Position numbers and translations under genes: made by a program. Below, piece after piece: positions 44,990 to 62,176 of a stretch of DNA of 64,000 nt. The DNA comes from Clostridia bacterium (GTDB lineage Bacteria; Bacillota; Clostridia; Oscillospirales; Acutalibacteraceae): the NCBI GenBank assembly GCA_017475765.1, contig JAFVEY010000027.1, positions 9,911 through 73,910 on the forward strand, written 5' to 3'. Within the stretch, counting starts at the first letter, position 1, and the number at the start of each line of letters is the position of its first letter. A model generated the notes under the pieces. The model was given only the letters and a program-made list of their open reading frames with translations, searched no databases and was not told where the DNA came from.

Positions 44990-45018
44990 TTGACAATCTG
45001 TATGAAATATGGTATCAT
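44990..45018 (+). promoter_or_regulatory. promoter with extended -10 (TTGACA-17-TGgTATCAT)
   Basis: -35 at 44990-44995 and -10 at 45013-45018 with TG at 45010-45011. Confidence 0.55.
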
Positions 45019-45083: not shown

Positions 45084-45566
45084 ATGGCTGACGAATTACT
45101 TGCGAGAAGAGTTTATGATAGAATGGTTGAACTTCTTCCTGATTCGGGAATCAAAAATTTCACTAAGAACGAGGAAAAGCTGAATGTCAGATTTACAGTC
45201 AACGGCGACGACATCCCCATGGATTTTATCATGAGAGTAATACCTAATTCACAGCTCATATCACTTCTTTCATTCATGCCGTTCGATTTCAAGAGCGACA
45301 GGATGATGGAGGGTGCAATTGCGGTTACTGCTATCAATGATAACATACTTAACGGCAGCTTCTGCCTTGATATGTCTGACGGTACGACCTACTTTAATGT
45401 ATACAACAGCTATATCGGAACGGAATTATCAGTAGAACTCCTCAGATATCTGATAGGCATTTCAGTAAATACCGTTGATGATTATAACGACAGACTCCTT
45501 GCTTTGAACAAGAGCATCATTTCTATCGAGGACTTCCTCAAATGGATCAATGAAAATAATGAGTAA
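45084..45566 (+). CDS. hypothetical protein, YbjN-like (putative sensory-transduction regulator fold)
   Basis: 160-aa acidic protein, with similarity to YbjN-family proteins judged by eye only. Confidence 0.35.
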   Translation: MADELLARRVYDRMVELLPDSGIKNFTKNEEKLNVRFTVNGDDIPMDFIMRVIPNSQLISLLSFMPFDFKSDRMMEGAIAVTAINDNILNGSFCLDMSDGTTYFNVYNSYIGTELSVELLRYLIGISVNTVDDYNDRLLALNKSIISIEDFLKWINENNE

Positions 45567-45593
45567 TAGCTGATATTGCTCCTGTACTTTCAG

Positions 45594-45634
45594 GCTCCGC
45601 TGCACGACTTTGCTTAGTGCGGCGGAGCTTTTCT
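45594..45634 (+). terminator. intrinsic terminator
   Basis: gctccgctgcac pairs with gtgcggcggagc (one G-U pair), followed by ttttc. Confidence 0.75.
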
Positions 45635-45947
45635 GTATGTCTTTAATCCGCAGAAATAATTTCCCCCCCCTGTTATCAAAAGATGGAAAAGGCTGTTATA
45701 ATATGTATATCGACAGGATAATCTGTCGGAACTTTGAAAAAACAAGCTGCAGCTTTTAGCCGTCTGCTGTTGGAAGAATTCGGATTAATGAAGAATGGAT
45801 TTCGATGACCTTCATTCTGAGATACCCCCTTGAGCCGATAAAGGTACACAATGCTGCTTTATCTGACGGCAGACGACTAAAAATTACAACAGAAAAGGAG
45901 GTAATTTTCTATATAAAAAATCAGACTTTGACGGATTCTGCGGTATC

Positions 45948-45976
45948 TTGACAAAGTGAAAATAAACAAGTATAAT
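45948..45976 (+). promoter_or_regulatory. consensus promoter (TTGACA-17-TATAAT) for the AAA+ protease operon
   Basis: -35 at 45948-45953 and -10 at 45971-45976. Confidence 0.6.
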
Positions 45977-46017
45977 TAAAAATATTATATATTTTTGTAA
46001 AAAAGGCGGTAATTTGT

Positions 46018-49000
46018 ATGGCGACTATTGAGAACAGTAAATTTCTTGAATCCATTATTGAAAAAGCAAAAACGTATACCGAAGAGGGCAATGTAACGAT
46101 TGATACGATTTTTCTTGCAATGATGGAATTTGTTGAAAATGTATCAGGACCGGAACTGACATCTGAGCAGATAGAGCTGAAAAGGCTTATTTCCGAAAAT
46201 GTCGATCTTTCAAGCGCCGCAAAGCTCCTGCATGAAGAAATAAAGAAAAAGAAAATTTCTTTTATTGATAATATCAATTATCAGAAACTGATCAAGGAAG
46301 CATCGGAACAGTCGGAAAAAAGCAGCCTGACAGAGCTGAGAGCAGATATTCTTGCTCAGTGTATCGTAAGATCTCCTTCCAACTCCATTAAAACAATTCT
46401 GAACCGTAAATCCGATAAACCGGCATTGGATGTGCCGCTGCAGAAAGCCGCTGATATATCCGAAACTCACGATAAGACAACCGCTGATGAAAAAACAGAG
46501 GCTCCCGAACCGGAAAAAGAAGAATCTGCAGACCCGCTTGATAAGCTCCGTCAGGTCGAGGCACTTGTAAAGAAAACAAAGCAGATAAGCGATATTCTGT
46601 CGAAAAAGCTGTATGGTCAGAATAATGCGATCGCCACCTTTGTTTCGGGCTATTTCCAGTCACTTATGCTGAAACTGACAGGAGAAACAAGAAATGCTCC
46701 CGGAGCATCATTTCTTTTTGCAGGCCCTCCCGGTGTCGGCAAGACCTTCCTTGCGGAATCGGTTGCGGAAGTTCTGGAGCTTCCGTATAAGCGCTTCGAT
46801 ATGAGCGAATACTCCGATCATGAGGCTAATATGATGTTCTGCGGCTATGATAACGTCTATAAAAATGCCGCTCCCGGTCATGTAACATCGTTTGTGGAAG
46901 AAAATCCGAAATGTATCCTTCTTTTTGATGAAATCGAAAAATGTCATCTCAATGTCATACACCTTTTCCTTCAGCTTCTGGATGCAGGCAGACTTAAGGA
47001 TAACTATACAAGAAAAGAAGTATCGTTCAAGGATGCGATCATTATTCTGACGACAAATGCAGGAAGAGAAATCTATGAAAATTCCGATTCCGGAGATTTC
47101 TCCGATATTCCGAGAAAGGTGATACTCAAGACGCTTCAGAGCGACATCAACCCCGTGACGGGAGCACCGTTCTTTCCGGGAGCAATATGCTCACGCTTTG
47201 CAACAGGCAATGTTGTCATGTTCAATCGTATGGATGTTACGGGACTCAGCTCGATCGTGAAAAAGGAAATGTCCAGAAATGCGGATAATATTGCAAAGAG
47301 CCTTGATGTCAAACTGGAAATTGACGAAAATATCTATACGGCTGTTTTGTTTGCCGAGGGCGGCGGAGTTGATGCAAGAACCGCAAGGAGCAGAGCGCAG
47401 ACCTTTATAGATAAGGAATTGTTTGAGCTTTTCAGACTGATGACATCGGAAGCATCTGTCAGCAAGATTGAGGATGTCAAGAAAATATCATTCTCGATGG
47501 AGCTGCCGAAGGAAAACAAGGTGATCTACGAAACCTTTAATATGTGTGAAAAGCCGGAAGCGCTTGTATTTGCTTCGTCAGATGTGGAGAGTAAATTTGA
47601 AAAAAGCAAGGGGTTCTTTGATCCTGTATTCGTTGATAATATTGAAAAAGCAAAGGAGCTTCTGACAAAGCGTGATATTAAATTCGTACTGATTGATTTC
47701 AGCTTCGGTGGAAACAACAATATTTATAATTATCTGAATATTGAGGATGTTTACTCTGCCGGAAGAGATTTTTTGCGTGAGATCAGAGAAAACTATAAAT
47801 CAGTTCCTGCCTATATTATCCAGACCGAAACCTATGAGTTCAGCCCAGAGGAAAGAGTTTCGCTCCTGCACCAAGGCGCAAGAGATATCATTGAGCTTGA
47901 ACCGAATGATACCATGACCGAACAGCTTGCCGAAATATGCAGAGCTTTGCATCGCCAGCAGAGTATGTATGAAATGACCAGCAGGGGAAAGGTGCTTACC
48001 TTTGAAACCGCTCAGACTGTTTCAAAAACAGATGAGGGACTGGAAGCCGAAATAAAACTGTTCGATTTCAGAACGGTAACTGCGGTTGATGCAGAGGATA
48101 ATGGACAGATCGTCAACAACCTTTCAAGACCCAATACGAAATTTGATGATGTGATCGGTGCGGATGATGTCAAGGAGGAACTCAGATATTTTGCGGAGTA
48201 TATGAAAAATCCGAGAAAATATGCCGGCACCGGACTCAGAGCGCCGAGAGGTATCCTTCTTTACGGTCCTCCCGGAACAGGTAAAACGCTTATGGCAAAG
48301 GCGCTGGCAGGGGAATCGGATACGACATTTATCAGCGCAGAAGGAAATCAGTTCCTTAAAAAATATGTGGGAGAGGGTCCTGAAGCGGTACACAGACTTT
48401 TCAGAACCGCAAGAAAATATGCGCCGTCCATTCTTTTTATTGATGAAATTGATGCTATCGGCAAATCAAGAGAGGGAGAGGGAGGACATATCAACGGCGA
48501 TATTCTTACTGCCTTTCTTGCAGAGATGGATGGTTTCAGCTCCGACCCGTCCAAGCCTGTGTTTGTGCTTGCCGCTACCAATTATGATGTTGACCCGGAA
48601 AGTCCGAGGTGCATAGACCCTGCACTTCTCAGACGCTTTGACAGAAAAATGTATGTCGATCTTCCGAAAAAGGAGGAAAGAAAGAAATATCTTGATATGA
48701 AACTGGCGGCAAATAAGGCGTTCAGTGTTAGTGATGCTGCTGCCGGCAGTCTTGCCAACCGTTCAATCGGAATGAGCCTTGCAGAGCTGGAATCGGTTCT
48801 GGAGCTTGCTCTTCGCAGCGCTGTCCGTACAGGCAGTATGTCTGTCACCGATAAGATCCTTGACGATGCTTTTGAAACCTTCAACAGCGGAGAAAGGAAG
48901 GAATGGAGCGAGGAGATCATGCTGCGTACGGCAAGGCATGAATCAGGTCATACGCTTATGTGCCGTCTTACGGGTGAAAAGCCGTCTTATGTGACCATCG

Positions 49001-49464
49001 TTTCCAGAGGAAACTTCGGCGGCTATATGCAGCATGCCGACAATGAAGAAAAGAGCGGCTATACAAAGAAGGATATGTTCGGCAAGATACGCACAGCCCT
49101 CGGAGGACGTGCAGCTGAAATCGTTTATTACGGAAATGAGGACGGCATCTCGACAGGCGCATCATCCGATCTTTCTTCCGCAACAAGAATGGCAACAAGT
49201 ATGCTTTGCCGGTTCGGTATGATAGAAGAATTCGGAATGGGTGTGCTTTCGGATCAGGAGCTTTTATATTCTCCTGCTGCCTCTGAGGTGAGAAGTGCCG
49301 TCAATAAGATACTGAATGAGCAGCTTGAAATGGCAGTCATGCTGATCTCCGCACACAGAGACTGCATTGACGCTCTTTCCTCACAGCTGCTTGCGAATAA
49401 TCATCTGAATACCGAGGAGATAGATGAAATTATAGGAAGATTTATTGATCTGAGCAAGATTTAA
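46018..49464 (+). CDS. chimeric soluble AAA+ metalloprotease: Clp-N-like + ClpA/B-D2-type AAA + receiver-like + FtsH-type AAA + M41 peptidase
   Basis: LYGQNNAIA..GPPGVGKTFLAESVAEVL..LLFDEIEKCH..LLDAGRL..TTNAG (ClpAB D2). A CheY-like alternating pattern follows. Then ILLYGPPGTGKTLMAKALA..ILFIDEIDA..ATNYDVDP..ALLRRFD (FtsH AAA) and HESGH with conserved downstream acidic residues (M41). No TM helices. Confidence 0.7.
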   Translation: MATIENSKFLESIIEKAKTYTEEGNVTIDTIFLAMMEFVENVSGPELTSEQIELKRLISENVDLSSAAKLLHEEIKKKKISFIDNINYQKLIKEASEQSEKSSLTELRADILAQCIVRSPSNSIKTILNRKSDKPALDVPLQKAADISETHDKTTADEKTEAPEPEKEESADPLDKLRQVEALVKKTKQISDILSKKLYGQNNAIATFVSGYFQSLMLKLTGETRNAPGASFLFAGPPGVGKTFLAESVAEVLELPYKRFDMSEYSDHEANMMFCGYDNVYKNAAPGHVTSFVEENPKCILLFDEIEKCHLNVIHLFLQLLDAGRLKDNYTRKEVSFKDAIIILTTNAGREIYENSDSGDFSDIPRKVILKTLQSDINPVTGAPFFPGAICSRFATGNVVMFNRMDVTGLSSIVKKEMSRNADNIAKSLDVKLEIDENIYTAVLFAEGGGVDARTARSRAQTFIDKELFELFRLMTSEASVSKIEDVKKISFSMELPKENKVIYETFNMCEKPEALVFASSDVESKFEKSKGFFDPVFVDNIEKAKELLTKRDIKFVLIDFSFGGNNNIYNYLNIEDVYSAGRDFLREIRENYKSVPAYIIQTETYEFSPEERVSLLHQGARDIIELEPNDTMTEQLAEICRALHRQQSMYEMTSRGKVLTFETAQTVSKTDEGLEAEIKLFDFRTVTAVDAEDNGQIVNNLSRPNTKFDDVIGADDVKEELRYFAEYMKNPRKYAGTGLRAPRGILLYGPPGTGKTLMAKALAGESDTTFISAEGNQFLKKYVGEGPEAVHRLFRTARKYAPSILFIDEIDAIGKSREGEGGHINGDILTAFLAEMDGFSSDPSKPVFVLAATNYDVDPESPRCIDPALLRRFDRKMYVDLPKKEERKKYLDMKLAANKAFSVSDAAAGSLANRSIGMSLAELESVLELALRSAVRTGSMSVTDKILDDAFETFNSGERKEWSEEIMLRTARHESGHTLMCRLTGEKPSYVTIVSRGNFGGYMQHADNEEKSGYTKKDMFGKIRTALGGRAAEIVYYGNEDGISTGASSDLSSATRMATSMLCRFGMIEEFGMGVLSDQELLYSPAASEVRSAVNKILNEQLEMAVMLISAHRDCIDALSSQLLANNHLNTEEIDEIIGRFIDLSKI

Positions 49465-49480
49465 AGGAAGGGATTTTTTT

Positions 49481-51763
49481 ATGACACAGCTTATGATACT
49501 ATTCTGCCTTTCTCCGATATGTCTGTTGATCGGTGTAGCTTGGCTTGTAAAGCTGAAAATCAGTAAGAAATACAGCTCTACAAGCCGTAAGCTGTGTATA
49601 TTCTCTCTGTCGCTGGTTCTGACCATTTTTATCATGCACCTGCTGGTTTCCGTATATCAGGTTCATTTTGTGCTGGGGGCTGACGGTGAACAAAACGGAA
49701 TGGAGCTGATATCGGCAAGTATCATCCACACGCTGCAAAGCTTCAGTATGGATGCTTCCTATGGAGATTATATTGCTGATGCCAAATCAATGCTTGCCGC
49801 TTATTTCGGCAGCGGTTCACCTTGGGTGACGGCTTATACGGTTTTCATAGCTTTGACCAATGTGGCGGCACCTGTGTCCGGAGGAGCAATTTTGTTTGAT
49901 ATCCTGACGACATTTATACCGGAGCTGAGGCTTTTTGTCGTGCTGCCGTTCAGAAAAAAATATTATTTTTCAGAACTGAATGAGCGTTCGCTTGCACTTG
50001 CGGAAAGTATCTATTCCCGCAGCAGAAAAAGTTTTCTGAAGCCTGTACTGATTTTTACGGACGCTTATGTTGACGAAGACGATGAATTAAAATCAGAGCT
50101 GCTGATTGCGGCAAAGGCGATCGGAGCAATATGTGTAAAATCAGATCTCAGGTACACGCTGAAACAGGAAAAGAATACTTATGTTTTTCTGATTGACGAA
50201 AATGAAACAGATAATCTGAAAACTCTTATCACACTTACAGAAAAAAAACATTATCAGACGCTCAAAAATGCCTTTATTTATATTTTTTGCGAAAAGGGAT
50301 ATACAAGCAGCGTTGAAAGAGAAGTACACAGCAAGCTCGAAAGGTTTTTCTCTTCAAAGTGGAAAAATTGTGAAAAGAATATGCCTATCATCATTTCCGT
50401 CAAAAGCTATCAGAATATGATCTGTAATTTGTTTAATGATGTGCCGCTGTTTGAACCGTTTCTGACGAAGAATGCGATACCCTATCATCAGGAAAAAAAG
50501 CTGGTGCTTACGATCATCGGAAGCGGAAAGATTGGAACAGAGGCATTTCTGACGGCAACATGGTGTGCGCAGATGCTCGACACAGAGCTTGTCATCAATG
50601 TTATCTCCAAAGAAACCGAGGAGGAATTCTGCAGTAGGGTAGACTTTGTCAATCCGGATATTCTTGAAAGTACCAAAGAACGATCCGAACTTTTAAGAAT
50701 TTACAAGCACAGGGAGGATGAGCAGGCTTTTGCTGCTCCTTATTTCAGATTCCAGTATTTTCGGTCGGATCTTGTTTCCAAAAATACAGATGAGCTTCTT
50801 GATGAAAAGCTGAAGGTGGGCGGCACTTTATTTGATACGGACTATTTTATTGTGACACTAGGTGCAGATGATATCAATATTTCCTTTGCAGACAAGCTGA
50901 GAACGGCAATTGAAAGGAAAGCTCTGGGACACCTGACAGATAGTGAGAGTACATATAAAAAGAAGATCATCGCCTATGCCGTTTATGACAAGGAAATATC
51001 TGATTCGCTGAATCATGCGGATTCACTCAGAAGCAGCTCCGCCGGCGGCAATGTGCTTGAACGCTGCAAGCCTTGTATGTATGCCTTTGGCAATATCAAG
51101 GAGCTGTACGGGGCAGAAAATGTATTTATGAGTATCTTCGAGGATATGTCCGAGCAACTGGCAGCAGCCTATCAGGAAAGAAAGGAAGCTCTGGTTGATA
51201 CCGACAAGGAAAAATTCAGAGAGAAAACGGATAAAAGGTACAATGACGAATACAATTACAGTTCCAATAATGCAAGAGCGGTTCATCAGCCGTATAAGAT
51301 GTATTCGGCAGGTATTCTGAAGGAATCTGTTTTTGACGATCATTGCTGTTTCAGGCATAAATCGGATTATGAAGCATTGATTTACCGTTTTTATCAGTTC
51401 CTTACAGACAAAGAGGAGTTTTCTCAGGAGAAAAAGGATATCATTAGAAGGCTGACATGGCTCGAACACAGAAGATGGAATGCGTTCATCAGGGTGCAGG
51501 GACTCAGGCACGCAACCGATGATGAGCATGAGACATTCTTTAAGCTCACAGGAAAGCATAAAGACCTGTCTGCAAAACTGCATAACTGTCTTGTTGAAAG
51601 CAGCGATAAGGAATTTGAAGATGTCACCACTCTTTATCATGATGAATCGGAGCTTGACGAAAACAAGCATGATCTTCTCGACTATGAATCATTCAAGGCT
51701 CACAGTTATTACAAATCTTATGATATGCCTGTTGCCGAGATAAAAATTACTATGAAAAAATGA
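49481..51763 (+). CDS. membrane protein with N-terminal TM helices, RCK/TrkA-N-like Rossmann motif and C-terminal RyR-like domain
   Basis: TM helices in the first ~70 aa. IIGSGKIGTEAF is a GxGxxG motif. LTWLEHRRWNAFIRVQG...KLHNCLV resembles the RyR domain pattern LAExHExW...GW...KLHPxLV. It starts 17 nt after the protease gene, so the two are probably co-transcribed. Confidence 0.45.
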   Translation: MTQLMILFCLSPICLLIGVAWLVKLKISKKYSSTSRKLCIFSLSLVLTIFIMHLLVSVYQVHFVLGADGEQNGMELISASIIHTLQSFSMDASYGDYIADAKSMLAAYFGSGSPWVTAYTVFIALTNVAAPVSGGAILFDILTTFIPELRLFVVLPFRKKYYFSELNERSLALAESIYSRSRKSFLKPVLIFTDAYVDEDDELKSELLIAAKAIGAICVKSDLRYTLKQEKNTYVFLIDENETDNLKTLITLTEKKHYQTLKNAFIYIFCEKGYTSSVEREVHSKLERFFSSKWKNCEKNMPIIISVKSYQNMICNLFNDVPLFEPFLTKNAIPYHQEKKLVLTIIGSGKIGTEAFLTATWCAQMLDTELVINVISKETEEEFCSRVDFVNPDILESTKERSELLRIYKHREDEQAFAAPYFRFQYFRSDLVSKNTDELLDEKLKVGGTLFDTDYFIVTLGADDINISFADKLRTAIERKALGHLTDSESTYKKKIIAYAVYDKEISDSLNHADSLRSSSAGGNVLERCKPCMYAFGNIKELYGAENVFMSIFEDMSEQLAAAYQERKEALVDTDKEKFREKTDKRYNDEYNYSSNNARAVHQPYKMYSAGILKESVFDDHCCFRHKSDYEALIYRFYQFLTDKEEFSQEKKDIIRRLTWLEHRRWNAFIRVQGLRHATDDEHETFFKLTGKHKDLSAKLHNCLVESSDKEFEDVTTLYHDESELDENKHDLLDYESFKAHSYYKSYDMPVAEIKITMKK

Positions 51764-51902
51764 TTCGTTTGATATCGGACTGTCAGACAGTAAAATATCT
51801 CAGCTAAGACTTTTGTATGTTTTTAACTCACCCCCCACCTTTTGTGCAATGAAATTTACCAAAACATACTGAAAAATATAGTAAGTGAAAGTAGGTGATA
51901 AT

Positions 51903-53789
51903 ATGTCATTATTTTTTGATCGCAAAATTGGTAAATCTAATCAACCAAAACAGTCAAAATGCTTTATCAGTCATTGTAGTGATGATAATATAATTATGAA
52001 CAGTCTGTCAGAATTTATTGATGTTACATTTGGCTACAATATAACAAGAGTCAATAACAGATTTTTCTGTACATATCATAATAGTGTGGCAGCAGGCATT
52101 GCATTAAATAAGAAGCTTAACCAAGAGCTTAATGAATGTGATTATATGATTGCTGTTATTACTGATAGTTATGTAAGAAGTACTGTATCAATTTATGAAC
52201 TTTGCTCATTTTACTTTGCTGGGAAGCCCGTGATACCGATTATTTATAATGGAGTTGTGGGAGAAAAATTTATAAGGGATATTTTTAATGAAAATATTGT
52301 TTATATTAAAGCTGATAAAAGTACTTCATTATCAGAACTTTCGTTACAATTTTTGAAATCTCTGAGCGAACAGGGATTAAGACCGAATGTATTAGAATCA
52401 CAGGCTGTCGAATATGCAGAAAGATTTTTTGAGGTGTCTGCGCAAAAAAAGCCAAGCAGATCTTTTATAGGTTGCGATGAAGAAAAATATGATAAACTTA
52501 TAAGAAAATGTGCAGAAATGGGTATTTGTGAATTCAGATCTGACAATAATGGAAATATTGAGCAACTTGCCGATAGCAAAGAGCTTTTCATACTTTCTAC
52601 TACCGGTGATTCACTGATAAAAAAACTATCTGAGTTTGTTATTCCTAAAATTATCAGAAACGGCGGAACTGTTATTGTTCTTATACCTAATAAGGAATCA
52701 GCATTTTGCAGAGATATAGCTGAGATAGAAAATCCAGATGATTTTCAGTACAATCAAAAACGTCTTGATAATGAATTTGATAATGTTATCATTAACTTAA
52801 GAAGATGCGTAAAGAAGGCATCTGAAGAGATTTCTGATCAGAAATTGGGAAAGATATATATAGGCTGTGCATTTAATCTTTTAAGACAGACTATTACACT
52901 TGGAATAACTGAGGAATATTTTTTGGGGTGGATGTCTGTTACAATTCCCCCTAAGCGTACTGTAACTGGAACACCTACAATTGATTTTAAGAGTGAAATA
53001 AACTGTGAATCTGGTCTTGGTTATATGCTGTATCATCATATAAATGCAGTATGCTCTATGGCAAAGACGAGAAATTGTTTTTTTGAAATAACATATGAAA
53101 GAAATTTTGACAGAGGATTTTATCTTGAACCTTCGACGGCAAAGGACTACTGGCAGGAAAAATCAGATTTGGCTGTTCAATTTATGAGGGAAGCTAAAAT
53201 TTATGACGATATTCTGATTGAAGTTGCGGCGCAGCATCCTCTGCATAATGGTAACAAACCGGGACCGGAATTTGCTGCACGGCTAGATTTTGCTTTTGAT
53301 TTATATAAAAAGTATAAGCAAATCGGAAAAAATGTAAAAATGTATGTTCCTGGAAGTATTCATAAGTATAAAGGCAAAACGGATAATATATCGCTAAGTA
53401 AATCAGGATGTGATTATCTTTTATCTAAAGGAGCAGAACCGGACGATCTTTATGGTGAAGAAATGAATAATAAATATAAAGGAGAAAGCGGAGTATACAA
53501 TTCTGCAGATGAGTGTTTTGTTGCAAAAAGTATTTTTTTTGATGGAGAGTTCAATTCACTTTTTTGCGTTTGCTCACCTAATCAGATGATGCGTAAAAAG
53601 TTGTTTTATTTAGAAATGGGAATTCTTCCGAAGTTTTATACTGTTCCGTGTGATATAATGTTTCATTCGGATATTTACGAAATATTTGAAGCTTTGCCAA
53701 ATGTTATATATCAAGATCATTCTCAGCAGGAAGAAGGTTCTGAAGAAGCAGTTCGTACAAGAAAAGAAAGAAAACCAGGATATATTTGA
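51903..53789 (+). CDS. TIR-like domain protein with long C-terminal extension (possible DUF218/YdcF-like region); very AT-rich gene
   Basis: N-terminus KCFISHCSDDN...ECDYMIAVITDSYVRSTVSIYELCSF follows the TIR pattern (FISY..D...L...G...ivlS..y..S.WC..EL). GC is about 30% against about 45-50% in the flanks. Confidence 0.5.
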   Translation: MSLFFDRKIGKSNQPKQSKCFISHCSDDNIIMNSLSEFIDVTFGYNITRVNNRFFCTYHNSVAAGIALNKKLNQELNECDYMIAVITDSYVRSTVSIYELCSFYFAGKPVIPIIYNGVVGEKFIRDIFNENIVYIKADKSTSLSELSLQFLKSLSEQGLRPNVLESQAVEYAERFFEVSAQKKPSRSFIGCDEEKYDKLIRKCAEMGICEFRSDNNGNIEQLADSKELFILSTTGDSLIKKLSEFVIPKIIRNGGTVIVLIPNKESAFCRDIAEIENPDDFQYNQKRLDNEFDNVIINLRRCVKKASEEISDQKLGKIYIGCAFNLLRQTITLGITEEYFLGWMSVTIPPKRTVTGTPTIDFKSEINCESGLGYMLYHHINAVCSMAKTRNCFFEITYERNFDRGFYLEPSTAKDYWQEKSDLAVQFMREAKIYDDILIEVAAQHPLHNGNKPGPEFAARLDFAFDLYKKYKQIGKNVKMYVPGSIHKYKGKTDNISLSKSGCDYLLSKGAEPDDLYGEEMNNKYKGESGVYNSADECFVAKSIFFDGEFNSLFCVCSPNQMMRKKLFYLEMGILPKFYTVPCDIMFHSDIYEIFEALPNVIYQDHSQQEEGSEEAVRTRKERKPGYI

Positions 53790-53935
53790 AGAAATCAGAA
53801 TGTGCTGTAATAATATTTTACTTGAATGTAAAGTATTTTGTTACAGCGCATTTTTAGTTAGTGAAATTATTGCTAATATTTTCATCTATTTTTTTGCAGG
53901 CATTGTTATAATTCCGAAAATATTGGTAATTGATT

Positions 53936-53964
53936 GACAAAGCGTAGGGAAAAAATTATAATAT
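53936..53964 (+). promoter_or_regulatory. consensus promoter (TTGACA-17-TATAAT) for the glycopolymer locus
   Basis: -35 at 53936-53941 and -10 at 53959-53964. Confidence 0.5.
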
Positions 53965-53996
53965 AACAGAATTATTATGTATAGGACTGCTTGCTT

Positions 53997-55106
53997 ATGA
54001 CGGTTTCTTTGTGTATCATTGCTTTTAATGAGGAAGAGGTTGTCGGAGGTCTGTTAAGTGAGGTTCTGGCTCAGAGCTATCCCAAAGCGAAAACGGAAAT
54101 AGTTCTTGTGAACAGCGCTTCAACTGACGGCACCCGTAAAATATTTTGTGAATTTGCAAAAAAGAATATTAAGGATTATTGGAATATAGCTGTGCTTGAT
54201 AACCCGAAACGCTTACAGGCTGCCGGCTGGAATACGGCAATCAGCGCAGCAGCAGGAGATATCATTATCCGTGTTGACGCCCATGCTTCAATTCCGCCTG
54301 AGTTTGTGGAGAAAAATGCGGCGCTTGCGGAAAGCGGCGAATATGTGTGCGGAGGGGCAAGACCCAATACGATTGACTCTCCGACTCCATACAAGGAAAT
54401 GCTGCTGCTGGCGGAAAGCTCTATGTTCGGCAGCTCCTTTGCATCATACAGGCGCAGGAGCAGCGGCAAAAAATATGTTGATTCGCTGTTCCATGCGGCA
54501 TACAGAAGAGAGGTTTTTGAAAAGGTCGGAGGTTTTAATGAGTCTCTCGGCAGGACAGAGGATAACGAGCTGCATTACAGAATCAGACAGAACGGTTTTA
54601 AAATATGCCAGAGTGAAGAGATCATTTCGTATCAGCAGATAAGACCTACTCTTTCTGAAATGGCAGCGCAGAAATACGGAAATGGAAAATGGATAGGTCT
54701 GACGTTGGGGGTCTGTCCCGGATGCCTTTCCGTTTTCCATTTTGCTCCGTTTTGCTTGGTACTGGCTTTTATGGCAGGAATCATTCTTGCAGCTGTGGGA
54801 GCTGTGAGCGGAAATATGGTTCTGATGCTGCCGCTTGCAGCACTTGCTGCCCTTTATGTTGTGGGAGATATCGTGATCACTCTTGCGGCGGTGATGACGG
54901 CTGAAAGAAAAAGCGGATGGCTGTATCTGCTGCCGTTGGTGTTTCCGGCGCTGCATTTTTCCTATGGTGCAGGTACACTAACAGGTATCTTTGAACTGCC
55001 GTTCTGGAAGCGCAGGCTTGACGGTTCAGCAGAAAAGGAAATTGAAAAAGTGAAAAACTGTGTGATAAACAATACGAAACGGAGGGGATCTGATGTCAGC
55101 GTATGA
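53997..55106 (+). CDS. family 2 glycosyltransferase with C-terminal TM region
   Basis: SLCIIAFNEE...LVNSASTDGT, a DxD region and four C-terminal TM helices. An alternative TTG start lies at 53991. Confidence 0.75.
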   Translation: MTVSLCIIAFNEEEVVGGLLSEVLAQSYPKAKTEIVLVNSASTDGTRKIFCEFAKKNIKDYWNIAVLDNPKRLQAAGWNTAISAAAGDIIIRVDAHASIPPEFVEKNAALAESGEYVCGGARPNTIDSPTPYKEMLLLAESSMFGSSFASYRRRSSGKKYVDSLFHAAYRREVFEKVGGFNESLGRTEDNELHYRIRQNGFKICQSEEIISYQQIRPTLSEMAAQKYGNGKWIGLTLGVCPGCLSVFHFAPFCLVLAFMAGIILAAVGAVSGNMVLMLPLAALAALYVVGDIVITLAAVMTAERKSGWLYLLPLVFPALHFSYGAGTLTGIFELPFWKRRLDGSAEKEIEKVKNCVINNTKRRGSDVSV

Positions 55107-55980
55107 AGCAAAAAAACAGAGTAAGGCTGCTCGTATTTTCAAAAACATCGGTGAGGGTATAATCAGAATACCGAAAGAGCATATCGGCTTCCGAAAACAG
55201 ATATTCATGCTTGCCAAGCAGGATTTGATCAAAACCTATAAGGGAGCGGTCATAGGACCCTTTTGGGCGCTTATGAAGCCGCTGTTTCAGCTTTTTGTAT
55301 ATTGGTTTGCGTTTACGATCGGCATGAACGGCAACTCTAACAGAGTGGCAACGGAGCTGAAAATACCATTTTTTGTGTTTATCATGGTAGGCTTTTTGCC
55401 GTGGTGCTTTATGAGTGACTGCGTTTCAAGAGGTTCAAAGTGCCTCAGAGACAACAGACAGTTTGTCAATAAAATTTCATTCCCTGTATCAGCTATCATG
55501 ACCTATACAACAATATCCAAATTTTATATACATTTGATGCTGTTCTCTTTTGCTTATGCCTATCTTGTGATAGCAGGCTTTATGCCAAGTATCTATAATT
55601 TTCAGATATTCGGCTATGCGGCTCTGATGTTTATCTTCTATCTTGCGCTGACATGGTCGCTGGCTCCGATGAGCGCCTTCAGCAAGGACTTCGAGAGCTT
55701 TATTGCAACCATTATGTCGGGACTTTTCTGGCTTTCCGGCGTATGCTTCGATTCCTACACCATTAAAAATGATTTTATTAAAAAACTCCTTCTTTTCAAT
55801 CCGATGACCTTTTTCATCAACGGCTACCGCAAGGCGCTGATTTATGATCAGTGGTTCTATGAGGGCTTCTATCATGCAGATTATGAAAATCTGATATTCC
55901 TGTGTGAATTTATATTTGTCCTTGTTTTGGGTATATTTAATTATAACCGTCTGAGAAAGGATTTGCCCGATGTTCTCTGA
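55093..55980 (+). CDS. ABC-2 type polysaccharide/teichoic-acid export permease (TagG/Wzm-like)
   Basis: LAKQDLIKTYKGAVIGPFWALMKPL signature N-terminus and six TM helices. Confidence 0.75.
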   Translation: MSAYEAKKQSKAARIFKNIGEGIIRIPKEHIGFRKQIFMLAKQDLIKTYKGAVIGPFWALMKPLFQLFVYWFAFTIGMNGNSNRVATELKIPFFVFIMVGFLPWCFMSDCVSRGSKCLRDNRQFVNKISFPVSAIMTYTTISKFYIHLMLFSFAYAYLVIAGFMPSIYNFQIFGYAALMFIFYLALTWSLAPMSAFSKDFESFIATIMSGLFWLSGVCFDSYTIKNDFIKKLLLFNPMTFFINGYRKALIYDQWFYEGFYHADYENLIFLCEFIFVLVLGIFNYNRLRKDLPDVL

Positions 55981-55999
55981 TAAAGAGTGGTGAAAATTT

Positions 56000-57202
56000 A
56001 TGGAGGAAACCTTCCTGCAAAAGCTGCAGCGTGTGAAAATAAAGGATGTCGGTCATATATTTCTTTTTCTTGCCGCTCTGCCCATTTCGCTTATATACAG
56101 GCTGTTCAGAAAGGATCTGTGGCTGATATGCGATAACGAAAATGAAGCAAGGGACAACGGATATTGGCTGTTCAGATACATCTGTGAAAATCATCCCGAT
56201 CAGGATGCTGTTTATGCCATCAACAGACATTCTCCCGACTATCATAAGGTAAAGGAACTTGGCAAAACCGTCCATTACGGCAGTCTCAGGCATTGGGTGC
56301 TGTATCTGACGGCAAAAAAGAATATAAGCTCGCAAAAGGGCGGAAAGCCGAATGCGGCTGTATGCTATGTGCTTGAAGTAAAGGGAATACTGAAAAATAC
56401 AAGAATATTTCTTCAGCATGGAATTATCAAGGACGATATGCCGTGGCTGCACTATGAAAATACCAAAATGAAAATGTTTGTTACCTCGACAGCAGGGGAA
56501 CAGAAATTTATTTCCGAAACCTACGGTTATCCGGAGGGCTGTGTCAGGCAGCTCGGACTCTGCCGCTTTGACAGACTGCATGACTTTGAGGTCAGACCGA
56601 AGCAGATTCTTCTTATGCCGACATGGAGAAGCTGGATTGCAGCTCCGACTTCGGCTTCCTTTGCTATCGAGGATGTGCGGAATTTTACGGATACAACCTA
56701 TTTCAGGGCATGGAGCGAATTTTTGCATAGCGAAAGACTGCATCATATATTGAGGGATAACGGTCTTAAGATGGTTTTCTATCCGCACAGGGATATGCAG
56801 TCGTTTTTGCCGTATTTTAAAACGGATGATGAAACGATCATAACGGCAAAATGGCCGGAATATGACGTTCAGGAGCTTTTGAAGGAATCGGCGTATCTGA
56901 TAACGGACTTTTCCAGTATTGCAATGGATTTTGCCTATATGGGGAAAAGACTTTCCTATTATCAGTTTGATTATGATGATTTCAGAAAGGGTCAATATCC
57001 TGAAGGCTATTTCAGCTATGAAAATGATGGCTTCGGACGGGTCTGCTACCGGCTTTCAGATATATTAGACGAGCTGGAAGCGGCTATTTCGGACGATTTT
57101 GAAAATCCCTTGCAATATAAAAAACGGCATGACGATTTCTTTGATCTTTTTGACAGTCATAACTGTGAAAGAAATTATTCGGCAATCAAGGAGCTGAAAT
57201 GA
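56000..57202 (+). CDS. CDP-glycerol glycerophosphotransferase family protein (TagB/TagF-like)
   Basis: Family-typical N-terminal and C-terminal motifs (WLICDNENEARDNGYWLF; ITDFSSIAMDFAYM). Confidence 0.75.
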   Translation: MEETFLQKLQRVKIKDVGHIFLFLAALPISLIYRLFRKDLWLICDNENEARDNGYWLFRYICENHPDQDAVYAINRHSPDYHKVKELGKTVHYGSLRHWVLYLTAKKNISSQKGGKPNAAVCYVLEVKGILKNTRIFLQHGIIKDDMPWLHYENTKMKMFVTSTAGEQKFISETYGYPEGCVRQLGLCRFDRLHDFEVRPKQILLMPTWRSWIAAPTSASFAIEDVRNFTDTTYFRAWSEFLHSERLHHILRDNGLKMVFYPHRDMQSFLPYFKTDDETIITAKWPEYDVQELLKESAYLITDFSSIAMDFAYMGKRLSYYQFDYDDFRKGQYPEGYFSYENDGFGRVCYRLSDILDELEAAISDDFENPLQYKKRHDDFFDLFDSHNCERNYSAIKELK

Positions 57203-58224
57203 TGAGGAAAAGTAAGGATAATCCAACGGCTGAAATAGATTTTGTGATTCCGTGGGTTGACGGAAGTGATAAAGAATGGCTTGTCGAAAAAGCAAAATAT
57301 GATCCCTCAGCAATGCTCAACAGCGACAGTCCTGTTCGTTACCGTGACTGGGATAATCTGCATTATTGGTTCAGAGCCGTCGAGAGGTTTGCACCGTGGG
57401 TCAATAAAGTGCATTTTATCACCTGGGGACACCTTCCGCCATGGCTCAATACAGAAAATCCGAAGCTCCATATCGTCAACCACAGAGATTATATTCCGGA
57501 AAAATATCTTCCGACCTTCAGTTCCCATACCATTGAGCTGAATATGCACAGGATCGAGGGACTTTCCGAGCAGTTTGTGTATTTTAATGATGATATGTTT
57601 ATTACCGCACCGACAGTTCCCGAAGATTTTTTCAAAGGCGGTCTGCCGTGTGATTGTTTCGGTCTGAACTGCATTTATTTCGGACACGACAGCGCAGGCC
57701 ATTTTAACGGCTCCAATATGGAGGTCATCAATACCGAATTCAAGGAAAAAAGAGCGATTATGAAGCGTGATTTCCGAAAATGGTTCAGTCCGAAAAACGG
57801 TTTGAGAAAAAATATCAAAACACTCATGCTTCTTGGCTGGGAATGGTTTCCGGGATTTAATTATAATCATCTTCCGACAAGTTTTCTTAAATCCACATTT
57901 GAAGAAGTATGGGGAAAATATCATGATGTGCTTGACAAGACTTGTTTGGATAAATTCCGGACAGAATCAAACGTCAATCAATGGCTGATGAAATACTGGC
58001 AGCTCTGTAAGGGCAGCTATGCCGTACGTTCCGATTCGATCGGAGAATGCTTTCATATTGAGGAAAAAAACTTCGGAGAGCTTATAAAGGCTCTTTCAGT
58101 TCAGCAATACAAAATGGTATGTATTAACGATACGCCGAGAACGATTCATTTTGAAGAGAAAAAACAAAAGGTGAAGGATTGCTTTGAAGTGATGCTTCCC
58201 GAAAAATCCTCGTTTGAAATATAA
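57199..58224 (+). CDS. Stealth-family hexose-1-phosphoryl transferase (capsule/teichoic phosphotransferase)
   Basis: CR1 IDFVIPWVDGSD; CR2 RYRDWDNLHYWFRAVERFAPWVNKVHFIT. Confidence 0.75.
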   Translation: MMRKSKDNPTAEIDFVIPWVDGSDKEWLVEKAKYDPSAMLNSDSPVRYRDWDNLHYWFRAVERFAPWVNKVHFITWGHLPPWLNTENPKLHIVNHRDYIPEKYLPTFSSHTIELNMHRIEGLSEQFVYFNDDMFITAPTVPEDFFKGGLPCDCFGLNCIYFGHDSAGHFNGSNMEVINTEFKEKRAIMKRDFRKWFSPKNGLRKNIKTLMLLGWEWFPGFNYNHLPTSFLKSTFEEVWGKYHDVLDKTCLDKFRTESNVNQWLMKYWQLCKGSYAVRSDSIGECFHIEEKNFGELIKALSVQQYKMVCINDTPRTIHFEEKKQKVKDCFEVMLPEKSSFEI

Positions 58225-58248
58225 GCAGCAAAAAAGGAGAGTATATTT

Positions 58249-62162: not shown

Positions 62163-62176
62163 AAGGAAATAAGCGG

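Follow-up and report, generated by a model that had tools for sequence, protein, structure and literature searches.

The window analysed here, a stretch of 64,000 nucleotides from a Clostridia bacterium, contains a gene for a large AAA+ protease (PROT), with the length and position given in the first-pass annotation, followed by the genes of a membrane protein (PART) and a TIR-domain protein, and preceded by a YbjN-like gene (Table 1). A candidate promoter ends 41 nt upstream of the PROT start codon and matches the consensus perfectly, as had been proposed. The spacer between PROT and PART is 16 nt, not the 17 nt stated before, and no terminator-like site is found between both genes in the window; the YbjN-like gene, for its part, is accompanied by a separate promoter-like site (44990-45018) as well as a terminator-like one (45608-45627). 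The locus had also been described as a lower-GC island. This holds for the TIR gene, the YbjN-like gene and the intergenic region, but not for PROT itself, whose GC content of 0.443 is genome-typical (0.437 in the window). Of the genes, the TIR gene alone is clearly low (GC 0.326, GC3 0.225).

Table 1. Features of the locus, with coordinates in the window and residue numbers in PROT
Feature	Coordinates	Strand	Basis
YbjN-like (type-III-secretion-chaperone-like) protein, 160 aa, f159 family	45084..45566	+	Pfam YbjN 3e-4
Candidate promoter, sigma-70-type consensus, TTGACA-17 nt-TATAAT	45948..45976	+	sequence match, 12/12
PROT, predicted soluble AAA+ metalloprotease, 1148 aa	46018..49464	+	ORF call, domain searches, models
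N-terminal 7-helix domain, probably Clp-N-like, residues 1-133	46018..46416	+	model secondary structure; weak Clp N similarity
Disordered linker, acidic, Pro-rich, residues 132-170	46411..46527	+	pLDDT 29-39
ClpA/B D2-type AAA+ module and small domain, residues 173-475	46534..47442	+	Pfam AAA_2 4e-34; NCBIfam
Pseudo-receiver (REC-fold) domain, residues 514-655	47557..47982	+	(βα)5 topology; Foldseek
Long conserved β-hairpin, residues 658-688, FETAQ...AEIKLFDF	47989..48081	+	both models
FtsH-type (classic clade) AAA+ module, residues 716-955	48163..48882	+	Pfam AAA 6e-51; FtsH_fam 345 bits
M41 zinc metallopeptidase domain, residues 965-1142	48910..49443	+	Pfam Peptidase_M41 2.5e-32
PART, membrane partner, 760 aa: 3-4 N-terminal TM helices, GxGxxG Rossmann-type motif, divergent C-terminal RyR-like domain	49481..51763	+	homology, TM scan, hhalign
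TIR-domain protein, 634 aa, low GC	51885..53789	+	Pfam TIR_2 3e-4; PADLOC spbK 7e-5

From the N to the C terminus, PROT comprises a Clp-N-like helical domain, a linker, a ClpA/B-D2-type AAA module, a REC fold, a β-hairpin, an FtsH-type AAA module and an M41 peptidase. Pfam, NCBIfam, the AlphaFold models and Foldseek agree with the domain order that had been read from the translation. Pfam places AAA_2 at residues 229-358, AAA at 746-881 and Peptidase_M41 at 969-1138. In NCBIfam, residues 185-443 align with positions 446-689 of the 734 of the ClpA model, which correspond to its D2 part, and the same module aligns with positions 549-799 of ClpB and 545-806 of ClpV, while residues 703-1135 align with FtsH at 345 bits against an equivalog cutoff of 600. 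The solved structures closest to this C-terminal region are the cytosolic regions of FtsH (32-37% identity).

The ATPase, pore-loop and zinc-site residues checked are all invariant or conservatively substituted among 49 homologues. In the Clp-type module, K242/T243, the pore-loop Y281, D304/E305, N347, R393 and R454 are invariant, so this module is an intact second unfoldase, as had been suggested, and not a degenerate relic; its LLFDEIEK segment, formerly labelled as a sensor, is the Walker B motif. The FtsH-type module keeps K756/T757, the pore loop Y/F783-x-G785, D809/E810, N855 and R872/R873, invariant or with conservative changes, and H974-E-x-x-H978 and D1051 are invariant in the M41 domain. 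Also, no transmembrane helix is found, in line with the earlier description, the highest Kyte-Doolittle score over 19 residues being 1.08. Judged by these motifs and this hydropathy score, PROT is predicted to be a catalytically intact and soluble AAA+ zinc metalloprotease.

Sequence conservation is lowest in the N-terminal domain, with a mean column identity of 39% against 63% for the whole protein, and the linker that follows it differs in length and sequence between homologues. The helical bundle of this domain and its similarity are consistent with the Clp-N assignment made before, but the matches behind that assignment are weak. For example, ClpA-N is matched with an E value of about 0.9, the ClpC2 match is also weak, and Clp_N is matched in 2 of 17 family members; hhalign against Clp N-domains gives a probability of 50% (E 1.6e-4, 102 columns in register), compared with 0.1% for the reversed-sequence control. 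The domain is probably Clp-N-like.

In two AlphaFold models, residues 514-655 form a (βα)5 unit, and in a Foldseek search of the PDB with this middle segment the top 50 matches are all response-regulator receivers (probability 1.0, target TM-score 0.67-0.79), which gives the claimed receiver-like domain a REC fold. The top matches include the receivers of LuxO, HupR, NtrX and NtrC1, which control AAA+ rings. The domain was said to lack the canonical Asp pocket. In this case, the acidic pair after β1 and the Lys after β5 are missing, but the Asp in the acceptor position is kept (D560, Asp in 48 of 49 sequences). Moreover, the segment does not reach the Response_reg threshold in the profile search, and an invariant polar loop motif, L573-N-x-E-D-x-x-S580-x-x-R583-D-F, lies on the canonical ligand face of the fold. 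Based on the models, the middle domain of PROT is a pseudo-receiver. Between it and the FtsH-type AAA module, both models contain a hairpin of about 30 residues that was absent from the earlier description, with strands 658-671 and 674-688 and with T664, Q666, A677, I679, L681 and D683 invariant.

The architecture, formerly taken as unfamiliar, is not unique to this genome, being shared by a compact family. At 50% identity the family has 342 clusters, and at 90% its full-length members alone give more than 120. No paper describing the family was found in the literature, and its database name is solely 'AAA family ATPase'. The family is present in 67 species-level genomes, every one of gut or rumen Clostridia, uncultured members of which are the sole hosts found. 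Some relatives carry a protein kinase fused at the N terminus and others lack the AAA_2 module, the REC, AAA and M41 domains being the constant core.

For the downstream membrane protein, the proposed RCK/RyR-like character agrees with the Rossmann-type motif and with an RyR-like C terminus carrying H-x-x-W, H and D residues (H663-R-R-W666, H701 and D734, almost invariant in the PART family). A PDB profile search with PART returns ryanodine-receptor repeats as all of its top five matches (best E 0.0022), and hhalign against RyR gives 93.7% for the short form of PART and 40% for the long form. RyR domains (PF02026) were reported in 2026 to bind cADPR-type signals made by TIR proteins, the binding residues being such an H-x-x-W, H and D set. 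PART shows 36% identity to the downstream gene in locus L001 and 24% in L003. Over the same pairs of loci, identity is 30% for PART, 56% for PROT and 70% for the small RyR protein, and this fast evolution of PART may be read as an arms-race signature. The pair is conserved: in 27 of 56 loci the gene directly after PROT is PART, separated from it by 6-71 nt, and in 14 loci PART is followed in turn by a small RyR gene (RyR match 1e-35).

The TIR-like neighbour had been correctly recognized: most of its approximately 50 homologues contain PF13676, and two bear the name 'TIR domain-containing protein'. TIR proteins occur in 19 of about 71 loci (about one-quarter), and in L031 the TIR protein is the only partner adjoining PROT. 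Among the 50 loci with enough flank, YbjN-like genes, usually as a tandem pair, lie within six genes upstream of PROT in 14 (YbjN is matched in 20 of 24 family members, best E 7e-7), and a CARF nuclease of the PD-(D/E)xK type (CARF4--CARF_PDDEXK, 3e-32) lies upstream in 12, being present in 22 loci overall. No Cas10 or CD-NTase able to feed this nuclease was seen. Further recurrent island genes are TIR-kinase, TIR-STAND, TIR-STING and ADP-ribosylglycohydrolase. At least one of the four main partners (PART, small RyR, YbjN-like and CARF nuclease) is found in 38 of 47 fully flanked loci and none in the other 9, no partner being universal. PADLOC has no model for this gene combination, and its IetA, DolB and PDC-M37B matches are to generic AAA domains. 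The recurrence of RyR, CARF-nuclease, TIR and TIR-STING neighbours across loci bears out the defence-island context, and the PROT gene is the conserved hub of a modular island, mostly co-oriented and nearly contiguous with PART.

These neighbours bear on whether PROT could simply be a housekeeping paralogue of FtsH or Clp, serving general protein quality control or a developmental role (sporulation, for example), or a protease placed under a His-Asp two-component phosphorelay by its receiver. The intact catalytic motifs, the genome-typical GC content, the conserved acceptor-position Asp and, in one lineage, SpoIIIAA and cell-wall genes near PROT would fit such an explanation. Nonetheless, it is very improbable, as the FtsH score stays below the equivalog cutoff, a transmembrane anchor is missing, neither the Mg-binding acidic pair nor the conserved Lys is present in the receiver, which falls below the Response_reg threshold, and no histidine kinase is found among the annotated recurrent neighbours. 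These are conflict-system genes (RyR, CARF nuclease, TIR, YbjN-like and TIR-STING), whereas the housekeeping genes of the outer flanks are unrelated and depend on the lineage; the PROT family is not a housekeeping FtsH paralogue.

Because defence genes cluster in islands, some of the linkage between PROT and its partners could be co-localization and not co-function. If this were the whole explanation, PROT would work on its own, as a single-gene system or a stress protease, and the TIR/RyR (Thoeris-like) and CARF modules next to it would be independent; we find this rather improbable. It would be consistent with loci in which PART occurs without PROT (accompanied by TIR in L073, by itself in L074 and L075), with the nine loci devoid of the four partners, and with one insertion site whose content alternates between PROT plus CARF nuclease and PROT plus PART plus CARF nuclease. 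However, the order and orientation from PROT to the long PART to RyR are fixed and the gaps short, despite a PROT identity of approximately 56% and unrelated outer flanks; upstream, the YbjN-like pair, the CARF nuclease and the short PART likewise keep fixed places, and the missing terminator-like site between PROT and PART in the window points in the same direction.

On balance, we lean with modest confidence toward a modular conflict system based on nucleotide signalling, with PROT as its gated proteolysis hub. PROT would form a hexamer as other AAA+ proteases do, with the Clp-type ring above the FtsH-type ring and the latter feeding the M41 chamber. The N-domain would be a docking site for substrates or adaptors, the YbjN-like pair being the obvious candidate, and substrates would be threaded past both pore-loop tyrosines and then degraded. 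By analogy with the placement of REC in NtrC-type AAA+ activators, the pseudo-receiver, directly before the FtsH-type ring, may gate ring assembly or coupling in response to a signal. This could be the binding of a ligand or partner at the invariant LN-ED-S-R loop or perhaps Ser/Thr phosphorylation, an option suggested by the relatives with a fused kinase. In a TIR/ADPR-type anti-phage or conflict system with RyR as sensor, the module would then supply the regulated proteolysis, and the likeliest client, restrained or activated by PROT, would be the putatively co-transcribed PART or other co-encoded effectors. Counted against this reading are PART without PROT (L073-L075), the low frequency of TIR, the lack of any universal partner and the lack of Cas10 or CD-NTase among the genes seen.

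On the other hand, PROT could be a signal-activated, indiscriminate killing effector, comparable to the caspase-like ThsE of type IV Thoeris or to SAVED/CARF-Lon proteases. In this case, a nucleotide would bind the REC-like pocket, bulk cellular or phage protein would be degraded and infection aborted, with PART, RyR and the CARF nuclease as parallel effectors or buffers. The constancy of PROT while its partners vary, the polar motif on the ligand face, the known protease effectors of TIR signalling and loci such as L031, with TIR alone beside PROT, would agree with this. It is nonetheless unlikely, since the recognized signal-binding modules (RyR, CARF, STING) are on other proteins, REC domains are not known to bind ADPR-type signals, TIR is missing from about 75% of loci, and an adaptor-type N-domain on a processive AAA+ protease, encoded together with chaperone-like proteins, points to selected clients.

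PROT combines traits of several known systems. Its C-terminal 440 residues resemble FtsH and the m-AAA and i-AAA proteases (YME1, AFG3L2) in the classic-clade AAA module, the aromatic-hydrophobic-Gly pore loop, the Arg-finger pair and an M41 peptidase whose zinc site combines HEXXH with an Asp as third ligand. Unlike these enzymes, PROT has no transmembrane helices or periplasmic domain, about 700 additional residues come first (N-domain, Clp-D2-type ring, REC and hairpin), and its SRH reads LLRRFDR, compared with LLRPGRFDR in E. coli FtsH. Residues 173-475 correspond to the D2 module and small domain of ClpA, ClpB, ClpC and ClpV, with Walker A/B, pore-loop Tyr, sensor-1, Arg finger and sensor-2 conserved, and the two-ring design and probably the N-domain are also shared with Hsp100/Clp. 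However, the order is inverted, with the D2-type (HCLR clade) ring first and the classic-clade ring second; the D1 ring and the coiled-coil middle domain of ClpB are absent, REC and the hairpin lie between the rings, and the peptidase is fused, whereas Clp recruits ClpP. As in the NtrC-family activators (NtrC1, NtrX, LuxO, HupR), in which REC controls AAA+ ring assembly, a receiver fold lies directly N-terminal to an AAA+ module, although in PROT it lacks the acidic pair and Lys, its AAA+ module is a protease motor and not a sigma-54 activator, and a cognate histidine kinase is not found among the annotated recurrent neighbours.

FtsH-type or classic AAA ATPases are also found in conflict systems, namely the Aravind-type 'FtsH ternary systems' (MoxR-vWA-FtsH) and IetAS/IteA, and PADLOC IetA and NCBIfam IteA match PROT at residues 683-958. 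In the ternary systems, the protein contains a pair of FtsH-type AAA domains of which the first is inactive; no M41 peptidase is mentioned in the passages describing it, and the MoxR and vWA proteins coupled to it are not among the annotated recurrent neighbours of PROT. For IetAS/IteA, PROT reaches 131 bits with IteA, whose cutoff is 510, and the IetS subtilase is not present. Finally, as in Thoeris and other TIR-signalling defence and in RyDEP-type RyR proteins, a TIR protein adjoins a membrane protein with a predicted signal-binding domain, and the H-x-x-W, H and D residues of RyR domains are also conserved in PART; the differences are that TIR is present in just about one-quarter of loci and that the RyR proteins of the PROT loci are cellular and not phage-encoded. 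Type IV Thoeris has a known protease effector. None of the 29 searchable published or proposed Thoeris types mentions RyR, M41, FtsH or YbjN. An AAA+ metalloprotease in TIR-signalling/RyR systems is hitherto undescribed, and PROT is a promising candidate for a protease-based defence module of a new type.

The reading frame of the protease encodes 1148 residues, and a protein identical to it is recorded from an ENA assembly (P0001). Pfam recognizes AAA_2, AAA and Peptidase_M41 along the chain, and in NCBIfam residues 185-443 are aligned to positions 446-689 of the 734 of the ClpA model, corresponding to the D2 ring and its small domain, with the ClpB and ClpV models also matching over the equivalent D2 region. 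The FtsH model of NCBIfam aligns to residues 703-1135 at 345 bits, being its equivalog cutoff 600. Both resources thereby agree with the reading frame and with the order of a ClpA/B D2 module, an FtsH-type AAA module and an M41 peptidase proposed in the first-pass annotation. Also, the absence of transmembrane helices claimed there is confirmed, with a maximum Kyte-Doolittle hydrophobicity over 19 residues of 1.08 (threshold 1.6; family median 1.24), no 19-residue window near transmembrane hydrophobicity and no such helix in the AlphaFold2 model. This model, obtained with 49 homologues as input, has a mean pLDDT of 80 and shows the Clp-type module, the FtsH-type AAA and the M41 domain together with the elements listed in the table. 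No solved structure covers more of the protein than its FtsH-like 40%.

Features of the protease, of its genomic window and of the compared loci (L numbers designate loci; window coordinates otherwise)
Feature	Position	Size	Occurrence	Basis or remark
Seven-helix N-terminal bundle	protease residues 1-133			AlphaFold2 model
Disordered linker	protease residues 132-170			AlphaFold2 model
AAA_2	protease residues 229-358			Pfam, 4e-34
(beta-alpha)5 unit	protease residues 514-655			AlphaFold2 model
Long beta-hairpin	protease residues 658-688			AlphaFold2 model
AAA	protease residues 746-881			Pfam, 6e-51
Peptidase_M41	protease residues 969-1138			Pfam, 2.5e-32
Window island	45084-53789			YbjN-like gene, protease, partner, TIR
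YbjN-like gene	45084-45566			member of the YbjN-like family
Non-coding leader	45567-46017	450 nt		between YbjN-like gene and protease
TG-extended promoter-like site	45673-45702			additional site, within leader
Consensus promoter match	45948-45976			TTGACA-17-TATAAT, 12/12 match, 41 nt 5' of protease ATG
Protease gene	46018-49464, +	1148 aa		ATG start
Membrane partner gene	49481-51763, +	760 aa		
TIR gene	51885-53789			
Second perfect TTGACA-17-TATAAT	53934-53962			upstream of glycopolymer operon
Glycosyltransferase/teichoic-type glycopolymer operon	53991-60513			GT2, Glyphos_transf, Stealth
MBOAT and DHHW genes	60930-63643			follow the glycopolymer operon
Partner, long form	next gene downstream, same strand, gap 6-71 nt	670-960 aa	27/56 loci with at least 3 kb downstream	
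Partner, short form	upstream, mostly adjacent	about 596 aa	10/50 loci with at least 3 kb upstream	paralogue of the long form
Small RyR protein	after long partner	about 96 aa	directly after in 14 loci, within 4 genes in 17	Pfam RyR, 1.3e-35
YbjN-like family	upstream, mostly tandem pair	about 159 aa	14/50 loci	YbjN in 20/24 members
CARF nuclease	upstream	about 418 aa	22 loci overall; 12/50 with flank	CARF + PD-(D/E)xK nuclease
TIR-STING gene	L047 14507-15619			
Giant transglutaminase-like-core gene	L064 151-4836			
Upstream triad, first member	L072 3717-4625	about 303 aa		
Upstream triad, second member	L058 4913-5182	about 90 aa		
Upstream triad, third member	L034 2994-3527	about 178 aa		opposite strand
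TIR-kinase and STAND locus	L003 2304-7981, 14257-17814			
Partner set with TIR-LRR protein	L073 6087-11960			

The conservation of the catalytic motifs was scored over 49 homologues that share about 50% identity with the protease. All 49 keep, in the D2-type module, the residues of Walker A (K242/T243) and Walker B (D304/E305), the pore-loop Y281, sensor-1 N347, Arg finger R393 and sensor-2 R454, and the LLFDEIEK stretch that had been labeled as a sensor corresponds instead to Walker B. In the FtsH-type module, K756/T757, the pore loop Y/F783-x-G785, D809/E810, N855 and the arginines R872/R873 of the SRH are invariant or conservatively replaced, while the zinc site of the peptidase (H974-E-x-x-H978 with D1051 at the third-ligand position) is invariant. 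The concern that the N-terminal AAA module could be degenerate is answered by the retention of every catalytic residue checked and, as judged from these motifs, neither motor is a relic.

Similarity of the N-terminal domain to known families is low (E about 0.9 with the ClpA N-domain and 1.6 with ClpC2). A comparison by hhalign with Clp N-domains gave a probability of 50% and an E value of 1.6e-4 with 102 columns in register, being 0.1% the probability of the reversed-sequence control. This domain is likely, although unproven, to be Clp-N-like. Of the pair of Clp-N repeats read from the translation, the seven-helix bundle and a weak similarity stand, but Clp_N itself matches only 2 of 17 members, with no match stronger than E 0.099.

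The region between both motors, modeled separately (pLDDT 81, pTM 0.71), has the (beta-alpha)5 topology of a receiver (REC), and the top 50 Foldseek matches in the PDB are all response-regulator receivers (probability 1.0, target TM-score 0.67-0.79), LuxO, HupR, NtrX and NtrC1 among them. In these four proteins an AAA+ ring is regulated by its own receiver. A CARF or other Rossmannoid sensor, considered for this domain because of the CARF nuclease neighbor, was discarded since Foldseek gives receivers only. At the sequence level the support for a REC identity is weak but consistent: OKR_DC_1_N matches in 8 of 18 members (best 8.8e-5, Pfam), Response_reg in 4 of 18 (best E 0.019, short of the Pfam gathering threshold), and two receiver-domain PDB chains also match. 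The first-pass annotation described a receiver-like domain without the canonical Asp pocket, and its fold and the loss of most of the pocket are borne out, but the acceptor itself is kept. D560, judged equivalent to D57 of CheY from its position in the topology, is Asp in 48 of the 49 sequences. The acidic pair after beta-1 is not conserved (Ala or Ser at 519; at 520, 27 sequences have Ser, 8 have Asp and 5 have Asn), beta-5 (621-626) is not followed by a conserved Lys in the 49 sequences, and the Thr/Ser of beta-4 is present as T603 in 21 of 49 only. Moreover, an enlarged beta3-alpha3 loop carries an invariant family-specific motif, L573-N-x-E-D-x-x-S580-x-x-R583-D-F, in which S580 is Ser or Thr in every sequence. 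With most canonical residues lost and this loop in their place, the domain is a pseudo-receiver whose conserved site is particular to the family. Taken from its sequence, the protein is an intact, soluble metalloprotease of two motors with a pseudo-receiver between them.

A word-indexed search retrieved more than 120 full-length relatives of 1125-1250 residues; wherever one of them has a name, it is 'AAA family ATPase', and the source is a MAG of Clostridia, Oscillospiraceae or Eubacterium. When species-representative genomes were scanned, at least 67 loci were obtained, every one of them in uncultured Clostridia of the gut or the rumen (Oscillospiraceae, Acutalibacteraceae, Faecousia, Fimenecus, Ruminococcus and Clostridium sp. 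CAG:138), a number that is a lower bound because a single family-specific peptide pattern was used as query. With a profile of the REC-plus-hairpin module, an exhaustive HMMER search yielded 342 clusters at the 50% identity level, of which 255 reach E <= 1e-10; most are proteins of 1100-1250 residues in which the module keeps its position. Long metagenomic variants of 1600-2100 residues (P0343, P0352 and P0338) add an N-terminal Ser/Thr kinase, with or without TPR repeats, to a retained AAA_2-REC-AAA-M41 core. Short ones (P0309 and P0326) are reduced to REC-AAA-M41 without the Clp-type ring, and in one variant two classic AAA modules and then M41 come after REC. The core that stays constant through these architectures is therefore REC, FtsH-type AAA and M41. 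Among the viral contigs of IMG/VR no member of the family was found; the membrane partner gave one weak match (L076).

The predicted promoter of the protease gene has the perfect consensus claimed in the first-pass annotation, and the membrane gene does adjoin it, although the spacer between the stop codon and the next reading frame is 16 nt and not 17. Neither the island nor the 450-nt leader gave a match in Rfam. The island is flanked on one side by an ABC-transporter/aminotransferase operon and on the other by a glycopolymer-synthesis operon, and it had been described as lower in GC, which holds for the TIR gene (0.326, GC3 0.225) and mildly for the YbjN-like gene and the leader but not for the protease, whose GC of 0.443 is typical of the window (0.437). 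The much lower GC of the TIR gene than that of its neighbors suggests an acquisition later than that of the protease and the partner. The TIR-like assignment of this neighbor is supported by Pfam. Some homologues of the window TIR gene carry a Trans_reg_C or DUF218 N terminus instead of TIR.

For the genomic context, 73 loci were compared from crude gene calls, with the products clustered after all-against-all BLAST. At least one of four families (membrane partner, small RyR protein, YbjN-like protein and CARF nuclease) is present in 38 of the 47 loci with both flanks. The pairing with the downstream membrane gene, proposed earlier as a check, recurs with the long form of the partner directly downstream, at the frequency given in the table. 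The nuclease matches CARF4--CARF_PDDEXK of PADLOC (3e-32) and Card1_endonuc of Pfam (9e-6). TIR proteins lie near the protease in 19 of about 71 loci, a count from iterated jackhmmer with Pfam confirmation for some members only, in the architectures TIR x2, TIR-TPR, TIR-kinase, TIR-STAND and TIR-LRR, and ADP-ribosylglycohydrolases are less frequent neighbors. No universal signal-generating enzyme was found in these loci. The defense-island context, proposed at the outset as a check, is recovered in the recurrence of RyR, CARF-nuclease, TIR and TIR-STING genes around the protease. Further out, the flanking genes belong to ordinary metabolism or to the cell wall and change from one lineage to another. 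At one site, between the genes of a GHMP kinase and YgjV, the protease is found with the CARF nuclease in L029, L032 and L057, and with the partner and the CARF nuclease in L007 and L011. This varying content shows modular gain or loss, an island behavior rather than housekeeping synteny.

These data bear on two other explanations. One is that the protein is a housekeeping protease, or that it is driven by a classical two-component phosphorelay; the retained D560 and the intact catalytic motifs would suit it, and the loss of the acidic pair and Lys, the lineage-specific flanks and an FtsH score far from the equivalog cutoff make it very improbable. An ordinary FtsH among conserved housekeeping neighbors is not what was found. 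The other holds that the linkage is only co-localization in islands, for which the modular exchange at a single site and the separable partner, with solitary copies in L074 and L075, could speak. It is considered quite unlikely, being conserved the operonic linkage of the protease to the membrane RyR-like protein and to other genes of nucleotide-signaling conflict.

Other genes recur in these surroundings. A TIR-STING gene (prok_STING 7e-21 with a CAP12/Pycsar-type TIR) directly follows the trio of protease, partner and RyR protein in L047 and also in L008, and its product is a CBASS-type effector. In 7 loci (among them L064, L047, L061, L071, L043 and L046) the genes upstream of the protease include one for a giant protein of about 1500-1730 residues with a transglutaminase-like core, and a small DUF5640 protein accompanies the protease or the giant protein in L043, L061 and L045. 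Further upstream a triad is repeated in the loci of the table and in 8-11 others; its proteins have no convincing family match, the 90-residue member being only weakly ThsB-like. In L003 the protease is found with DUF2828/DUF7788, FHA, a TIR-kinase fusion and a TIR-NPHP3_N STAND NTPase.

The membrane partner has three or four hydrophobic helices at its N terminus and a GxGxxG Rossmann-type motif (VTIxGxGxIGTE), for which only weak family matches were obtained (TrkA_N and an NAD-binding match); the protein as a whole gave no matches in PADLOC, NCBIfam or Pfam. Its C terminus is nearly invariant at H663-R-R-W666, H701 (in LKLHPCLVE) and D734. When the profile of this region is compared with that of the genuine RyR proteins encoded in these loci, the probability is 93.7% with the short form of the partner and 40% with the long one, and the top five matches of the partner profile among PDB sequences are all ryanodine-receptor repeat chains (best E 0.0022), both results tying it to the RyR domain. 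The downstream gene product is then, as anticipated, a membrane protein with a Rossmann motif and a divergent RyR-like C terminus. The RyR domains of RyDEP use H75, W78, H100 and D117, and the conserved H-x-x-W, H and D of the partner agree with them in residue type and in order. This domain may be a candidate binder of the TIR-made signal. Over the same locus pairs, identity is 30% for the partner, 56% for the protease and 70% for the small RyR protein, and the divergence of the partner is the pattern expected under diversifying pressure. In L073, short and long partners occur with a TIR-LRR protein and no protease nearby, adjoining LHH and TNT polymorphic toxins, a SUKH immunity gene and Mu-like Mor/GemA genes; it is possible that this set is a stand-alone Thoeris-like module with an RyR-type membrane effector.

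By reference to known AAA+ proteases, the protein would form a hexamer in which a Clp-D2-type ring is stacked on an FtsH-type ring feeding the M41 chamber, and the N-domain on its flexible linker would be a docking point for substrates or adaptors. The tandem YbjN-like proteins, with a secretion-chaperone fold, would be candidate adaptors; the search of this family against PDB sequences gave nothing meaningful. NtrC-type REC-AAA+ proteins offer an analogy for the pseudo-receiver, which could gate the assembly or the coupling of the FtsH ring. The trigger might be a ligand or partner bound at the invariant REC loop, or perhaps Ser/Thr phosphorylation, suggested by the conservation of S580, the kinase-fused relatives and the loci with TIR-kinase and FHA proteins. 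From its context, the module would be the proteolytic arm of a TIR/ADPR-type, RyR-sensed defense system, and its most likely client would be the presumably co-transcribed partner or other co-encoded effectors, restrained or activated by the protease. This reading of a signal-gated protease acting on the partner or co-encoded effectors is regarded as moderately probable. A role of the protease as an indiscriminate effector switched on by a signal is unlikely; its constancy among varying partners and the invariant REC loop would be compatible with it, and the adaptor-type N-domain with chaperone-like proteins encoded nearby suggests selected clients. A more specific proposal is only tentative, namely that protease, partner, small RyR protein and YbjN-like pair are an undescribed class of anti-phage system in which an ADPR-type messenger, the product of variable TIR sensors, is read by cellular RyR domains and a signal-gated, three-tier AAA+ metalloprotease executes or resets the response.

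If this more specific proposal is true, it would bring the first FtsH-type machine and the first cellular RyR-domain receptors into bacterial immunity, and the two unfoldase rings would have a pseudo-receiver as their gate. A role of RyR domains with ADPR-type signals has been shown so far for phage counter-defense proteins only, and here cellular RyR-domain proteins are proposed as receptors or buffers of such signals. The module, unexplored and abundant in gut Clostridia, would join regulated proteolysis with TIR, RyR and CARF nucleotide signaling. By the textbook, FtsH-type proteases are membrane-anchored and single-ring, and Clp D2 rings come after a D1 ring. The protein is a natural chimera that breaks both rules and puts a receiver-fold switch between two motors, being a tractable system for the coupling and gating of tandem heterologous rings. 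Residues D560, S580 and R583 of the protease and H663, W666, H701 and D734 of the partner are available for testing.

Finally, the protease can be compared with known systems. It has in common with FtsH the classic-clade AAA motifs, the HEXXH of M41 and the third zinc ligand, and its C-terminal 40% is predicted from these to be FtsH-like in its working; however, it lacks the pair of N-terminal transmembrane helices that anchors FtsH and scores below the equivalog cutoffs (345 against 600 bits for TIGR01241 and 214 against 1008 for PRK10733). With the class I Hsp100/Clp proteins (ClpA/B/C) it shares intact D2 motifs, but there is no D1, and the D2-type module comes first, followed by a classic AAA of FtsH type. 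The middle domain is like REC (PF00072) in its fold and Asp, whereas the acidic pair, the Lys and a score above the Pfam threshold are missing. With regard to Thoeris, a candidate TIR signal synthase is encoded in the window, but TIR proteins occur in only 19 of about 71 loci. The MoxR-vWA-FtsH ternary system (eLife 2020) was rejected, MoxR and vWA being absent among the recurrent annotated neighbors; its protein has two FtsH-type AAA modules with the first inactive, whereas here both are intact and the first is Clp-D2-type. The anti-phage ATPase of IetAS was also rejected (IteA score of 131 bits against a cutoff of 510), and no IetS-type S8 protease is found among the recurrent neighbors. A recent systematic survey of TIR systems, with its supplements, does not mention any of the partners of the protease, and no description of its architecture was found in open-access papers and preprints. 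The protease is a new AAA+ protease architecture, and the defense-type module around it, built from known domains, is probably new.
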